From a virus (lineage: Duplodnaviria > Heunggongvirae > Uroviricota > Caudoviricetes): a DNA stretch of 11,329 bases. The DNA lies in IMG/VR virus record IMGVR_UViG_2778261360_000002, positions 1-11,329 of that record; one strand, 5' to 3'. Below are positions 971 through 10,856 of the stretch, one piece after another. Below the pieces are notes generated by a model. The model made no database searches, was not told where the DNA came from, and saw only the letters and a program-made list of their open reading frames with translations. Position 1 is the first letter of the stretch; each line of letters starts with the position of its first letter. Both the position numbers and the translations under genes were made by a program.

Positions 971-1103
971 TTTTGGGGACTCCTGGCTGATTAAGTATGT
1001 CGATAAGGCGTTTCCATCCGCTACGTAATTTACGGGTGATTCGTTCAAGTAAAGATTCGGAAGGGCAGCCAGCAACAGGCCACCCTGCAATGGCATATTG
1101 CAT
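939..1103 (-). CDS. cIII: CIII, inhibitor of FtsH-mediated CII degradation (54 aa)
   Basis: Hand translation from the ATG at 1103 (minus strand) gives [53 protein letters not shown] with stop at 939-941. Missing from the ORF track because it is short and overlaps kil in another frame. Confidence 0.85.
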   Translation of the reverse strand: MQYAIAGWPVAGCPSESLLERITRKLRSGWKRLIDILNQPGVPKNGSNTYGYPD

Positions 1104-1175
1104 GGTGTGCTCCTTATTTATACATAACGAAAAACGCCTCGAGTGAAGCGTTATTGGTATGCGGTAACGCCGCGC

Positions 1176-6358: not shown

Positions 6359-6645
6359 CGGGCAAAGAGGCAATTATTCATTATCTGGAGACGCACAAGA
6401 GCTTCTGTGCGCCGGACGTTGCCGCGCTAACAGGCGCAACAGTAACCAGCATAAATCAGGCTGCGGCTAAAATGGCACGGGCAGGTCTTCTGGTTATCGA
6501 AGGTAAGGTCTGGCGAACGGTGTATTACCGGTTTGCTACCAAGGAAGAACGGGAAGGAAAGATGAGCACGAACCTAATTTTTAAGGAGTGTCGCCAGAGT
6601 GCCGCGATGAAACGGGTATTGGCGGTATATGGAGTTAAAAGATGA
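6355..6645 (+). CDS. ren: Ren (protection from Rex exclusion, 96 aa)
   Basis: MTGKEAIIHYLETHKSFCAPDVAALTGATVTSINQAAAKMARAGLLVIEGKVWRTVYYRFATKEEREGKMSTNLIFKECRQSAAMKRVLAVYGVKR matches lambda Ren; ATGA overlap with the P stop. Confidence 0.85.
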   Translation: MTGKEAIIHYLETHKSFCAPDVAALTGATVTSINQAAAKMARAGLLVIEGKVWRTVYYRFATKEEREGKMSTNLIFKECRQSAAMKRVLAVYGVKR

Positions 6646-6669
6646 CCATCTACATCACTGAGCTAATAA

Positions 6670-6700
6670 CAGGCCTGCTGGTAATCGCAGGCCTTTTTAT
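6670..6700 (+). terminator. tR2 intrinsic terminator between ren and ninB
   Basis: caGGCCTGCtggtaatcGCAGGCCttttta: 8-bp stem, 8-nt loop, T-tract. Confidence 0.8.
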
Positions 6701-6718
6701 TTGGGGGAGAGGGAAGTC

Positions 6719-7159
6719 ATGAAAAAACTAACCTTTGAAATTCGATCTCCAGCACATCAGCAGAACGCTATTCACGCAGTACAGCAAATCCTTCCAGACC
6801 CAACCAAACCAATCGTAGTAACCATTCAGGAACGCAACCGCAGCTTAGACCAGAATCGAAAGCTTTGGGCTTGCCTTGGTGACGTCTCTCGTCAGGTTGA
6901 ATGGCATGGTCGCTGGCTGGATGCAGAAAGCTGGAAGTGTGTGTTTACCGCAGCATTAAAGCAGCAGGATGTTGTTCCTAACCTTGCCGGGAATGGCTTT
7001 GTGGTAATAGGCCAGTCAACCAGCAGGATGCGTGTAAGCGAATTTGCGGAGCTATTAGAGCTTATACAGGCATTCGGTACAGAGCGTGGCGTTAAGTGGT
7101 CAGACGAAGCGCGACTGGCTCTGGAATGGAAAGCGCGATGGGGAGACAGGGCGGCATGA
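6719..7159 (+). CDS. ninB: NinB (Orf family recombination mediator, 146 aa)
   Basis: From the internal Met: [84 protein letters not shown]... matches lambda NinB. Confidence 0.85.
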
Positions 7160-7338
7160 GACGACAGCGACGAAGTTTCACCGACATCATCTGCGAAAAC
7201 TGCAAATACCTTCCAACGAAACGCTCCAGAAATAAACGCAAGCCAATCCCAAAAGAATCTGACGTAAAAACCTTCAACTACACGGCTCACCTGTGGGATA
7301 TCCGGTGGCTAAGACATCGTGCGAGGAAAACAAGGTGA
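7156..7338 (+). CDS. ninE: NinE (60 aa)
   Basis: The internal Met of the track ORF gives [60 protein letters not shown], matching lambda NinE. The ATGA overlap with the ninB stop implies ninC and ninD are absent here. Confidence 0.85.
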
Positions 7339-7424
7339 TTGACGCGATGATTTATTCGGGGCTATATTCCTCACGCGCCAGCAAAATCTGGCGTCGGGAT
7401 TAGCACCCCGGATATCGAAACGGT

Positions 7425-7450
7425 GCATAACCGCGCTGGCGGTTTTTTTA
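7425..7450 (+). terminator. Candidate intrinsic terminator within the ninE-ant intergenic leader
   Basis: gcataaCCGCgctgGCGGtttttttatgc: short GC stem plus T8, flanked by the gcataa/ttatgc inverted repeat. Confidence 0.45.
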
Positions 7451-7613
7451 TGCGCTAAGCACAGTCACATTCGCGATTTATGGCGGGCTGTGTGGGGGAG
7501 CCGAAAGGCTCGCCGGATGTTTCGACCGGTAGTGCTAACCCCGCACAGTTCGCCACCACGATGATTAGCACCTGACGGTGGCGAGGTAAAAATTATCGAA
7601 ACGCGAGGTCATT

Positions 7614-8291
7614 ATGGCTGTTCAAATTTCTGTCGAAAACCTTTCCCCTGTTACCTATAACCAGATCCCCGTAATTACTACTGAACTGTTGGCTCACCTT
7701 TACGGAACAAAAATCAAAAACATTTCTGATAACTTTCTGAACAACACGACGCGATTCATGCCCGGAAAGCATTACTTTAAAATTGAAAAAAACGAATTAC
7801 GCGAGTTTAAGAACAGACCCGAAACAATCGGGTTAGTTGGTAAAAATGCCCGCGCCCTCATCCTCTGGACAGAACGCGGCGCAGCCCGTCACGCAAAAAT
7901 GCTCGAAACCGATCAGGCGTGGGAAGTGTTCGAAAAACTGGAAGACTGCTATTTCAGCCAGTGCGAGAAAAATACTGGCAAACAAGAGAAGAAGCCCAAC
8001 GGGCTTTCCGCAAAAGAAACAGACAGCCTTGTATGGCTGTGGGATTATGCCAACCGCTCACAGGCATTGTTCCGTGAGTTGTATCCCGCATTAAAACTGA
8101 TTCAGTCTGGCTATTCCGGCATATGCTACGACTACGGTCATGAGTTCTCGTATGTTATTGGAATGGCGAGAGACGTTTTAATTAATCACACACGAGATGT
8201 TGATATCAATGAGCCAGACGGACCAACGAACCTTCTGGCATGGGAAAGGCTTAAGAACAAAGAATTGCCGCCTTCACTGCATCGCTACTGA
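7614..8291 (+). CDS. Antirepressor-like phage regulatory protein (225 aa; N-terminal domain resembles the antirepressor/ORF6N-type fold), nin-region moron
   Basis: SD GAGGT 5 nt before the ATG. N-terminal region ...[38 protein letters not shown]...[34 protein letters not shown] is typical of phage antirepressor N-terminal domains by recollection only. Moderately AT-rich. Followed by a strong terminator. Confidence 0.6.
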
Positions 8292-8309
8292 CAATTGACA
8301 ACTTAACAA

Positions 8310-8332
8310 ACCCAGCTTCGGCTGGGTTTTTT
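8310..8332 (+). terminator. Intrinsic terminator after the antirepressor-like gene
   Basis: aCCCAGCttcgGCTGGGtttttt: 6-7-bp stem, tetraloop, T6. Confidence 0.8.
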
Positions 8333-8365
8333 ATTGCTGAATTTTCAATGTGAGAGGACATGACA

Positions 8366-9088
8366 ATGAATGAGCTGATAAATAGCAATGCCATCAAAAT
8401 GACAAGCATTGAAATCGCTGAGTTGGTGGGAAGTCGTCATGACAAGGTGAAACAATCCATTGAACGACTGGCTGTTCGAGGTGTGATCCGAAATCCCCCA
8501 ATGGTGGTTTTCGAAAAAATCAATAACTTAGGATTACTTCGTGGCGTAGAGGCTTACGTTTTTGAGGGCGAACAAGGTAAGCGCGACAGCATTATTGTCG
8601 TTGCCCAGTTGTCGCCGGAATTCACCGCTCGCCTTGTTGACCGCTGGCGAGAACTCGAAGGGGCAACCGCGAAAATACCACAAACCTTTTCTGAGGCATT
8701 GCGCCTTGCGGCCGACCTTGAAGACCAGAAGGCTGAACTGGAGAAACAGCTTGCTCTCGCAGCACCTAAAGTTGAGTTTGCCGATCGCGTTGGCGAGTCC
8801 AGCGGAATTTTGATTGGAAACTTTGCAAAGGTTGTTGGTATTGGTCCAAACAAACTGTTTGCGTGGATGCGCGATCACAAAATCCTTATTGCTTCAGGCT
8901 CCCGGCGCAATGTGCCAATGCAGGAATATATGGATCGTGGCTATTTCACAGTGAAAGAAACAGCGGTCAACACAAATCACGGAATACAGATATCGTTCAC
9001 CACAAAAATCACCGGGCGTGGTCAACAGTGGCTGACCAGAAAGCTGCTCGATAACGGAATGCTGAAAGTAACAGGGGAGGCTGCTTAA
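8366..9088 (+). CDS. Rha-family phage regulatory protein with C-terminal KilA-C/antirepressor-type domain (Roi-like); start at 8366 preferred, 8360 possible
   Basis: N-terminus ...[40 protein letters not shown] is a Rha-type (Phage_pRha) signature. The C-terminal half ...[38 protein letters not shown]... resembles the KilA-C/Ant C-terminal domain. SD GAGAGGA is 7 nt before the ATG at 8366. Confidence 0.7.
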
Positions 9089-9693
9089 TGGCTAAACCAG
9101 CGCGAAGGAAATGCAAAATATGCAAGGAATGTTTTCACCCGGCATTCTCAAATCAGTGGTGGTGCTGCCCGGAACACGGAACTCAATTAGCACTCGAACG
9201 ACGAAGTAAAGAACGCGAAAAAGCGGAAAAAGCAGCAGAGAAGAAACGACGACGAGAGGAGCAGAAACAGAAAGATAAACTGAAGATTCGAAAACTCGCC
9301 TTAAAGCCCCGCAGTTACTGGATTAAACAAGCCCAACAAGCCGTAAACGCCTTCGTCAGAGAAAGAGACCGCGACTTACCATGTATCTCGTGCGGAACGC
9401 TCACGTCTGCTCAGTGGGATGCCGGACATTACCGGACAACTGCTGCGGCACCTCAACTCCGATTTGATGAACGCAATATTCACAAGCAATGCGTGGTGTG
9501 CAACCAGCACAAAAGCGGAAATCTCGTTCCGTATCGCGTCGAACTGATTAGCCGCATCGGGCAGGAAGCAGTAGACGAAATCGAATCAAACCATAACCGC
9601 CATCGCTGGACTGTCGAAGAGTGCAGGGCCATCAAGGCGAAGTATCAGCAGAAACTTAAAGACCTGCGAAACAGCAGAAGTGAGGCCGCATGA
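9088..9693 (+). CDS. ninG: NinG (Rap) structure-specific recombination endonuclease (201 aa)
   Basis: [89 protein letters not shown]... matches lambda NinG/Rap. Confidence 0.85.
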
Positions 9694-9884
9694 CGTTCAC
9701 AGTAAAAACCATTCCTGACATGCTCGTTGAGGCATATGAAAATCAGACCGAGGTAGCCAGAATACTGAACTGCAATCGTGCCACAGTCAGAAAATACATT
9801 GGCGATAAAGAAGGGAAAAAGCACGCCGTCGTCAATGGCGTCCTTATGGTTCATCGCGGATGGGGTAAAGATACTGATGCGTGA
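9690..9884 (+). CDS. ninH: NinH (64 aa)
   Basis: [58 protein letters not shown]... resembles lambda NinH; ATGA overlap with the ninG stop. Confidence 0.8.
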
Positions 9885-10311
9885 TATCCGGCAGGTTCTT
9901 GAGCGCTGGGGTGCATGGGCGGCAAATAACCATGAGGATGTTACATGGTCGCCCATTGCTGCCGGATTTAAGGGACTGATCCCCGAAAAAGTAAAATCAC
10001 GTCCACAGTGTTGTGACGATGACGCGATGATTATATGCGGGTGTATGGCTCGCCTTAACAGGAACAACAGCGATCTGCATGACTTGCTGGTTGATTATTA
10101 CGTGTTGGGGGAGACGTTCATGGCGCTGGCACGGAAACATGGGTGCTCTGACACCTGTATAGGTAAACGCCTTCACAAAGCGGAGGGGATTGTTGAAGGC
10201 ATGCTGATGATGCTGGGAGTGAGGCTTGAGATGGATCGGTATGTTGAGCGTGAATTGCCGGGAGGGAGAACCTCTGTATTTTATCAGCGAAAAAATAGTT
10301 TACGATCGTAA
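9877..10311 (+). CDS. Q: Late-gene antiterminator Q, non-lambda type (phage 21/82, QuuD-like family, 144 aa)
   Basis: [60 protein letters not shown]... resembles E. coli prophage QuuD-type Q proteins by recollection. Occupies the Q position after ninH. The track ORF's N-terminal extension (start 9778) overlaps ninH and is rejected. Confidence 0.7.
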
Positions 10312-10591: not shown

Positions 10592-10690
10592 GTATCCGTT
10601 CAACAGGAATGTTACATACCTCACAATTAAGTCAGTTGAATGTTGTCTGCCCGGATGAGAATTTGTTAGAAAAAAACTGCATGGTGAATC

Positions 10691-10732
10691 CCCCTGAGCG
10701 GAGGGGCGACTGGTGACGGTATAATCTCTGAT
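10691..10732 (+). promoter_or_regulatory. Candidate strong sigma70 promoter (perfect TATAAT at 10720-10725) with upstream palindrome CCCCTgagcggAGGGG (10691-10706); possible pR'-type late promoter
   Basis: Consensus -10 hexamer read directly; the -35 is weak, and the palindrome sits where a -35 or activator site would be. Confidence 0.4.
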
Positions 10733-10825
10733 TATCAAAACGAGAATGACGAGGGTTTAGTGGCACCGGGCTGAACTCACCGGGAGGCACCCGGCACCAT
10801 GCAATGGCACATAGCGCCACTCTCC

Positions 10826-10850
10826 AGCCCCTCTCCGGAGGGGCTTTCTT
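10826..10850 (+). terminator. Terminator-like hairpin AGCCCCTCtccgGAGGGGCT followed by a U-rich tract (TTCTT)
   Basis: 8-bp stem with tetraloop; about 115 nt downstream of the TATAAT promoter. The U-tract is interrupted, so efficiency is uncertain. Confidence 0.4.
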
Positions 10851-10856
10851 ATGGAC

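Follow-up and report, generated by a model that had tools for sequence, protein, structure and literature searches.

A probable P1 immI-type C4 antisense RNA module in the spacer that separates ninE from the antirepressor gene in a lambdoid E. coli prophage

Identity of the spacer

The 275-bp spacer at positions 7339-7613 of the window, by which we mean the whole 11,329-nt stretch of phage DNA analysed, very probably constitutes a complete C4 antisense RNA immunity module of the phage P1 immI type, carried by a lambdoid prophage of E. coli within its nin region. A composite motif in which TTAGCAC is followed by TCGAAAC had been described from three copies in this spacer, and each copy was found exactly at the coordinates given for it. 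In the P1 immI-type module, the first copy represents a1/b1, the second b'/a' and the third a2/b2. An RNA switch dedicated to the downstream antirepressor gene had also been proposed, and this reading held, the spacer encoding a predicted short terminated sRNA and motif copies that are complementary to one another.

The spacer is an element of a known kind that Rfam already lists, and at most it adds an unannotated copy to that family. Nothing fundamentally new is described here, since knowledge of the family, its structure and its mode of action goes back to 1990 (P1/P7), 2010 (Rfam) and 2016 (Gifsy-1). The present copy has a specificity of its own (TTAGCAC/TCGAAAC), lacks icd and is unannotated, with no RNA entered in the spacer in either the GenBank record (phage JLK-2012) or the RefSeq record. 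This leaves an annotation gap, as the spacer holds two sRNA genes that probably decide the expression of the antirepressor and hence prophage induction. The features of the spacer and its borders are as follows.

7156-7338: NinE, upstream border of the spacer
7339-7368, + strand: sigma-70 promoter-like site, with -35 TTGACG (7339-7344), an 18-nt spacer and -10 TATATT (7363-7368)
7375-7449, + strand: predicted IsrK-like short RNA (c4-a1b1 element plus terminator), matched by isrK and c4-a1b1 in Rfam
7400-7406, + strand: a1 site TTAGCAC, in the loop of the hairpin CGGG-AUUAGCAC-CCCG, complementary to a' (7532-7538)
7415-7421, + strand: b1 site TCGAAAC, complementary to b' (7519-7525)
7429-7449, + strand: intrinsic terminator, stem AACCGC-GCUG-GCGGUU followed by U7, from the isrK model alignment
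7480-7575, + strand: 31-codon ORF, opened by a conserved AUG that forms part of the 5' strand of the C4 stem, and ending 38 nt before the ant ATG
7482-7558, + strand: predicted mature C4 of about 77 nt, its ends set by register with the annotated P1 c4 (L012 8344-8420)
7519-7525, + strand: b' GUUUCGA, exposed in the 9-nt P3 loop of C4
7532-7538, + strand: a' GUGCUAA, in the 8-nt unpaired junction (7531-7538) between P3 and the 3' strand of the closing stem P1
7565-7571, + strand: a2 site TTAGCAC, within the leader of the antirepressor mRNA and 7 nt past the predicted 3' end of C4
7577-7584, + strand: GGTGGCGA, able to pair with TCGCCACC (7550-7557), the 3' strand of the C4 closing stem
7596-7602, + strand: b2 site TCGAAAC, 2 nt upstream of the Shine-Dalgarno sequence GAGG (7605-7608) and 12 nt before the ATG at 7614
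7614-8291, + strand: 225-aa antirepressor, ORF6N in its N-terminal domain and of the P22 Ant type in its C-terminal domain

The two heptamers are separated by 8 nt in the first copy (a1/b1), by 6 nt in the second, which is inverted and reads GTTTCGA-N6-GTGCTAA (b'/a'), and by 24 nt in the third (a2/b2). When both strands of the 11.3-kb window were scanned for TTAGCAC-N(4-30)-TCGAAAC, three matches were obtained, against 0.01 ± 0.07 expected from 200 dinucleotide-preserving shuffles, of which none (0/200) reached three. The single heptamers were at chance level, with four found for each and 1.3-1.7 expected. Isolated extra copies, also at chance level, occur at 9187 (TTAGCAC) and 7903 (TCGAAAC).

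Rfam models matched the spacer in three places, all on the + strand and all above the respective gathering thresholds (50 bits for isrK, 46.7 bits for c4-a1b1 and 45 bits for C4). The isrK family (RF01394) scored 76.6 bits at 7375-7449, over model positions 1-77 and with the Rho-independent terminator included; c4-a1b1 (RF03163) scored 50.6 bits at 7362-7414; and C4 antisense RNA (RF01695) scored 75.1 bits (E = 1.3e-13) at 7476-7560, over the full-length model (positions 1-87). Phage P1 itself is matched by the identical three families in unchanged order. A tRNA or tmRNA was considered and rejected, as ARAGORN found none and the resemblance of C4 to a tRNA is confined to the acceptor end.

Structure and covariation of the C4 antisense RNA

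The predicted C4 RNA consists of a 17-bp closing stem (P1), a GNRA hairpin (P2, 7498-7511) and a further hairpin (P3, 7512-7530). Its minimum free energy (MFE) over 7482-7558 is -48.6 kcal/mol (z = -5.5), and the MFE structure is this three-helix fold, with a' and b' unpaired. The hairpin GAGCC-GAAA-GGCTC that the preliminary description had placed in a structured leader is thus present, although its reading as a leader element has to be given up, as it is helix P2 of C4. The same correction applies to the second motif copy, which had been taken for another part of the leader and instead lies inside a separate, conserved 77-nt antisense RNA.

Folding and covariance across homologous prophages, which had been suggested as a check on the spacer, gave a strongly covarying C4 fold and target sites that covary with C4. 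Among 26 homologues, the 27 base pairs of the C4 fold are 99.7% paired, and 15 of the 27 show compensatory changes. The covariation score was 0.484, compared with 0.198 for shuffles (reached in 0/500) and at most 0.094 for slid controls.

A tRNA-like A-C-C-A (7556-7559) follows the C4 closing stem, which is opened by G7482, an arrangement in keeping with reports that RNase P processes the C4 of P1/P7. The P1/P7 C4 RNA, once cut out by RNase P, acts in trans. As summarised in PMC5320573, C4 of P1/P7 is processed by RNase P and its b' occludes the ribosome-binding site. From P1/P7 we infer that the 5' end of the approximately 77-nt C4 of the window may likewise be matured by RNase P, although the predicted site reads GGC rather than the usual GGW.

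Promoter-like site and predicted IsrK-like short RNA

The promoter-like site at 7339-7368 abuts the ninE stop codon, matches the consensus at 10 of 12 positions and is the sole promoter-like site in 6600-8400; transcription is predicted to start at G7375. A TTGACN-17/18-TATAnT site lies at equal distance in 16 of the 33 related modules that were compared (see below), including those of P1, where it is annotated as P1c4/P51b, and of Gifsy-1.

The short RNA is predicted to fold into a first hairpin (7375-7394), a hairpin with a1 in its loop (7395-7410), a single-stranded b1 and the intrinsic terminator. For the latter, a hairpin followed by a T8 tract had been described. The hairpin, AACCGCGCTGGCGGTT at 7429-7444, was recovered, whereas the T run counts seven (7443-7449) rather than eight. 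As a member of the isrK family, the predicted 7375-7449 RNA may exist as a discrete sRNA and may bind Hfq.

It had further been suggested that the first and second motif copies pair as a long-range stem of roughly 20 bp. Such a stem can form, and its a1:a' part has been validated in the Gifsy-1 homologue, but it is interrupted, being made up of 7395-7406 with 7532-7543 (11 of 12 pairs), 7408-7411 with 7526-7529 (4 pairs) and 7415-7421 with 7519-7525 (7 pairs). Forcing this stem in a 266-nt transcript gave -107.1 kcal/mol, compared with an MFE of -109.3 kcal/mol, a difference of 2.2 kcal/mol.

Target sites and antirepressor gene

In the leader of the antirepressor mRNA, the target duplexes are short (7-8 bp) and of about -9 kcal/mol each, with predicted energies of -9.0 kcal/mol for a'-a2 and -8.7 kcal/mol for b'-b2. 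Their shortness weighs against the mechanism proposed below, as does the end of b2 in the window, which lies 2 nt before the Shine-Dalgarno sequence and leaves it uncovered; in many homologues the b'-b2 pairing extends into GGAGG.

Between a2 and b2, the segment 7577-7584 can pair with 7550-7557, and this pairing is conserved in 28 modules (96% paired, 11 compensatory cells). The two segments would make up an alternative hairpin with a2 inside it, in competition with the C4 fold. Weinberg 2010 likewise describes a hairpin further downstream that overlaps the 3' half of P1.

An overlap of this kind would also suit transcriptional control, whereby C4 pairing mainly causes premature termination, either at the IsrK terminator or further downstream, in the manner of the P4 CI RNA or through Rho-dependent polarity, and ribosome binding is not the chief target. 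In P1 the transcription of ant is also lowered by C4. The authors of the Gifsy-1 study cite the P4 CI/seqA/seqC system as a structural analogue and report an 8-fold rise of a transcriptional fusion with IsrK (PMC4825925). On the other hand, no T run follows the alternative hairpin 7550-7557/7577-7584 in the window, b2 adjoins the Shine-Dalgarno sequence in the window as in almost every homologue, and the translational effect in Gifsy-1 is 139-fold, against 8-fold for transcription (PMC4825925). We regard transcriptional control as very improbable. The CI RNA of satellite P4 is alike, according to the literature, in being a small RNA processed from a longer transcript, in pairing with complementary sites (seqA/seqC) up- and downstream of itself on that transcript and in controlling immunity; it differs in having no sequence or Rfam relationship to the present RNA and in terminating the transcription of replication genes instead of controlling the translation of an antirepressor.

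The spacer had been called non-coding, and this stands with one qualification, namely the 31-codon ORF at 7480-7575, which is the positional analogue of Gifsy-1 orf45. Its equivalents in the 33 modules range from 8 to more than 68 codons, with the stop located inside C4 in eight of them. A conserved leader peptide was therefore rejected, neither length nor frame being kept, and judged from sequence conservation the ORF is probably not a conserved coding sequence.

The protein encoded downstream has Pfam matches to ORF6N (3e-20) and P22_AR_C (4e-25) and belongs to PHROG 377 ('anti-repressor Ant'). Identity to Gifsy-1 AnrP amounts to 87% over its N-terminal 124 aa and identity to P22 Ant to 86.5% over its C-terminal half; P1 Ant1 showed no similarity to it. 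The gene controlled thus resembles AnrP and P22 Ant and is unrelated to P1 Ant1, which indicates that the RNA module is the conserved unit and the cargo is variable. Across modules the cargo likewise differs (icd/ant in P1, ORF6N proteins, Bro-N) and the RNA stays conserved.

Comparative evidence for RNA pairing

Homologous spacers were found in 256 phage records, the majority from Stx-converting phages with identities of 70-76%. Apart from APSE-7, for which isrK, C4, a' and b' were annotated by its authors, almost none of them carries an annotation. A set of 33 distinct modules was assembled from the window, 10 GenBank phages, P1, Gifsy-1 and 20 viral contigs, the latter picked with an nhmmer C4 filter. 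A loose structural-pattern scan of viral contigs had returned mostly unrelated loci, and only about 22 of 120 held a real C4 according to nhmmer.

The 33 modules contain 17 different a' sequences and 27 different b' loops, and in each phage the complements of its own a' and b' recur on either side of C4, as a1 and b1 upstream and as a2 and b2 downstream, and b2 borders on the Shine-Dalgarno sequence or overlaps it. The mean longest Watson-Crick match was 6.4-7.7 nt for own pairs, compared with 3.2-4.2 nt for pairs of other specificity. When C4s were reassigned to flanks by permutation, the observed total was reached in none of 10,000 trials. The downstream sites a2 and b2 covary with a' and b' as tightly as a1 and b1 do. 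Many Stx phages share the same a and have a different b.

The motif copies had alternatively been interpreted as inverted protein-binding sites or repressor operators. DNA operators for a phage repressor or a Rha/Ant-like protein would, if the binding protein co-evolved, likewise give three direct and inverted copies that vary in concert from phage to phage. The sites, however, lie in single-stranded loops of strongly covarying RNA structures. The differences between b1 and b2 are A→G changes opposite a U of b' at which a G:U pair is kept, so pairing rather than sequence identity is preserved, a signature of RNA pairing and not of a repeated DNA site. Each site is also just 7 nt in length, the spacing varies (N8, N6, N24), the module is accompanied by no DNA-binding gene, its cargo being variable, and RNA pairing has been demonstrated experimentally in P1/P7 and Gifsy-1. 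Operators at these sites are, in our judgement, barely credible, and this part of the preliminary description was abandoned.

Proposed mechanism

A mechanism of the P1 c4 type is strongly favoured for the window, in which its elements, their family membership, their folds and the covariation of all four sites with C4 were observed; the translational block and the competition by a1/b1 would follow by homology with P1/P7 and Gifsy-1. The promoter at 7339-7368 would be constitutive and initiate at about 7375, and the terminator at 7429-7449 would end most transcripts, yielding a 75-nt IsrK-like sRNA with a1 and b1 exposed. The C4 precursor would be supplied by read-through transcripts and, in lytic growth, by PR-derived transcripts; by analogy with P1/P7, RNase P would cleave 5' of G7482 to give a 77-nt RNA with a tRNA-like ACCA end.

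The b' loop and the a' junction of C4 would then pair with b2 (7596-7602) and a2 (7565-7571), blocking the loading of ribosomes at the Shine-Dalgarno sequence beside b2, so that no antirepressor would be made and lysogeny would be stabilised. The ant of an incoming phage would be silenced too, provided that its a/b specificity is identical. Repression would be relieved by a1/b1, carried by the short RNA or, in cis, by the long transcript, which would compete for a'/b', and the expression of Ant would be set by the ratio of short RNA to C4. The supplement to Weinberg 2010 credits the idea that a1/b1 compete with a2/b2 for C4 to Citron & Schuster 1990.

No icd-like ORF was found between b2 and ant, the first ORF after b2 being that of the ORF6N/P22_AR_C protein. 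The mechanism described for P1, a block of icd translation combined with Rho polarity, can therefore not apply literally.

Comparison with known phage systems

The order of elements is the same as in P1 immI: promoter, a1 hairpin, b1, terminator-like hairpin, C4, a2, and b2 at the ribosome-binding site. Both C4 RNAs, that of the window as predicted, are 77-nt three-helix structures with b' in a loop, a' in a junction and a 3' CCACC(A), and the antirepressor is the controlled gene in both. The distances agree closely.

-10 element to a1: 32 nt in P1, 32 nt in the window
a1 to b1: 14 nt in P1, 15 nt in the window
C4 length: 77 nt in P1, 77 nt in the window
a2 to b2: 29 nt in P1, 31 nt in the window
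b2 end to ATG: 11 nt in P1, 12 nt in the window

The recognition sequences differ (TTAGCAC/TCGAAAC in the window, TTGACAG/GTTAGTG in P1). P1 has icd–ant, whereas the window lacks icd and a C1 operator and has b2 directly before the antirepressor gene; the P1 module is carried by a plasmid prophage and that of the window by the nin region of a lambdoid prophage.

The isrK–orf45–anrP region of Gifsy-1, also a lambdoid prophage, is collinear with the spacer over its full length (promoter, IsrK, C4, a2, b2, gene start), and the two share a TTGACR-18-TATATT promoter. IsrK of Gifsy-1 is the counterpart of the a1/b1 RNA, and a C4 profile gave 65.8 bits for the orf45/STnc1160 region. The specificities differ (TTGGCGT/TCACCG in Gifsy-1), as does the location of the module, which is downstream of Q in Gifsy-1 and upstream of Q, between ninE and ninG, in the window. 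The stop of the 45-codon ORF of Gifsy-1 overlaps the anrP ATG, whereas that of the window has no ATGA overlap, and the P22-Ant C-terminal domain of the window Ant is absent from AnrP.

With +1 placed at the A of ACGCCAGC, all mutant positions of Hershko-Shalev et al. 2016 fit the Gifsy-1 sequence, and the pairs G28–C162 and G31–C159, which were validated by compensatory mutation as 'helix b-I' (PMC4825925), map to a1:a'. In the same study IsrK supplied in trans raised the translation of AnrP more than 100-fold, an RNA of about 80 nt (STnc1160) was processed, and AnrP triggered prophage induction (PMC4825925). STnc1160 arises at the position of C4.

The explanation given by these authors is a structural switch in cis combined with coupling to the leader ORF (PMC4825925). 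Transferred to the window, the read-through transcript would be silent through a1/b1:a'/b' pairing in cis, an IsrK-like RNA would open this fold in trans, and the leader ORF would be translated and carry ribosomes into ant; free C4 would not be the key player. This reading draws on the full-length alignment with isrK–orf45–anrP and the similarity of the Ant N-terminal domain to AnrP, on the AUG conserved at the 5' edge of C4, and on published mutants and native gels that support two conformers and activation in trans (PMC4825925). The a1b1:a'b' helix, at only 2.2 kcal/mol above the MFE, also makes a switch in cis plausible. As a point against the mechanism proposed above, the a1 mutation G28A in cis increased rather than decreased basal expression (PMC4825925), which a pure decoy model does not predict. 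Yet the leader ORF is not conserved in length and ATGA coupling is absent from the window; the C4 fold is kept in the MFE structure of the window; and a2 and b2 are left without a role despite their tight covariation with a'/b'. The double mutant G28A/C162U, moreover, was not silent again (224 against 4 units, PMC4825925), which is better accommodated if a' needs a2. We consider it unlikely that this logic, rather than repression by a free C4 RNA, operates in the window.

P22, in which ant is under the control of Arc/Mnt and the sar RNA, had been offered as the precedent, and P22 immI is indeed alike in that an antirepressor is silenced by a small RNA. P1/P7 immI (c4–icd–ant) and Gifsy-1 IsrK–AnrP are closer and were preferred. 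The sar RNA is an opposite-strand transcript that crosses the ribosome-binding site of ant, whereas all elements of the window are on the + strand; a search of 6600-8400 gave no promoter-like site on the - strand, and no arc or mnt genes are present.

Wider implications and further observations

The literature on P1 c4, which concerns a repressor antisense RNA, and that on Gifsy-1 IsrK, which concerns an activator sRNA and a leader ORF, do not cite each other, and P1 c4 is uncited in Hershko-Shalev et al. 2016 (PMC4825925). Tentatively, and with less confidence than the assignment of the spacer itself, we suggest that the P1 c4 and Gifsy-1 modules might be one and the same, with IsrK as the a1/b1 competitor of C4 that had been postulated long before, orf45/STnc1160 as C4, the a2 hairpin as a switch in cis, and the a/b code as a combinatorial second immunity. 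If so, the choice between the a2-enclosing hairpin and the C4 closing stem would decide whether a transcript becomes a repressor RNA or a translatable ant mRNA, and the a/b code would set which co-resident lambdoid or Stx prophages cross-induce through their antirepressors. Homologous modules occupy the same place in many Shiga-toxin phages, so that a/b specificity could affect prophage cross-induction and the release of toxin.

Past the antirepressor gene, an isrJ-like sRNA was considered and rejected, there being no Rfam match above noise in this region. A terminator-like hairpin is located there at 8308-8329.

Pairing specificity and the Gifsy-1 isrK locus

The 33 C4 antisense RNA modules compared here (the window, 10 GenBank phages, P1, Gifsy-1 and 20 viral contigs) contained 30 different combinations of a' and b', the two recognition elements of the predicted C4. 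Many Stx and lambdoid phages had a = TTGGCGT in common, with differing b sites; the two-site a/b code is combinatorial.

The Rfam families isrK and c4-a1b1 overlap, and one RNA is described by both. The comparison, which took in C4 as well, covered 7375-7560 of the window and approximately 34350-34076 (minus strand) of Gifsy-1. The Gifsy-1 'orf45/STnc1160', from the isrK–orf45–anrP locus studied by Hershko-Shalev et al. 2016 (PMC4825925), is a C4 homologue, and the compensatory pairs published for Gifsy-1, G28–C162 and G31–C159, are a1:a' pairs, a1 being the first a site, on the IsrK-like RNA. The P1 c4 work was not cited in the Gifsy-1 paper (PMC4825925).

Possible alternative hairpin and open reading frame at the C4 boundaries

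TCGCCACC (7550-7557), which makes up the 3' side of the closing stem of C4, is complementary to GGTGGCGA (7577-7584), located between a2 and b2 in the antirepressor leader, and this pairing was kept with compensatory changes in 28 modules. When paired, the two segments would form a hairpin displaying a2, and this would exclude the predicted RNase P site together with the outer part of the stem of C4. Such a hairpin could act in cis as a switch between C4 production and translatable mRNA.

At the opposite edge of C4, the following reading frame was identified:
7480-7575, plus strand, ORF with its AUG at the C4 5' edge

The AUG was nearly invariant, at the same position, among the 33 modules, while the ORF that it opens ranged from 8 to >68 codons. 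In 10 modules, e.g. those of phiP27 and L018 (another of the compared set), no stop was present within the sequence examined, and in 7 of these 10 the ORF extended, without a change of frame, into the gene that follows. The AUG is probably kept for structure (RNase P site and closing stem), not for coding.

Other elements of the early region

Further elements of the window were as follows:
1058-1116, minus strand, thermoregulator element of lambda cIII (perfect match, 88.5 bits with Rfam Lambda_thermo)
6671-6694, plus strand, terminator-like hairpin AGGCCTGC…GCAGGCCT with T run, upstream of ninB
8308-8329, plus strand, strong terminator-like hairpin (9 bp and T run), directly 3' of the antirepressor gene
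8360-9088, plus strand, second antirepressor-like gene, 'Roi'-like, with Rha/KilAC domains
9778-10311, Q antiterminator gene
10650-10856, plus strand, STnc100 RNA (full-length Rfam match, 166.9 bits)

No isrJ-like RNA was found after the antirepressor gene, where Rfam gave nothing above noise in the region of the hairpin at 8308-8329. The second antirepressor-like gene, which follows this hairpin, carries a frameshift annotation in E. coli TB354.

The STnc100 match lies just downstream of the Q gene, in the place of a short terminated PR' transcript, as for lambda 6S RNA or, in Stx phages, for the sRNA StxS (PMC7547250). The hairpin at 6671-6694 is placed where the tR terminator of the nin region would sit, and the perfect Lambda_thermo match confirmed the window as a lambdoid early region.
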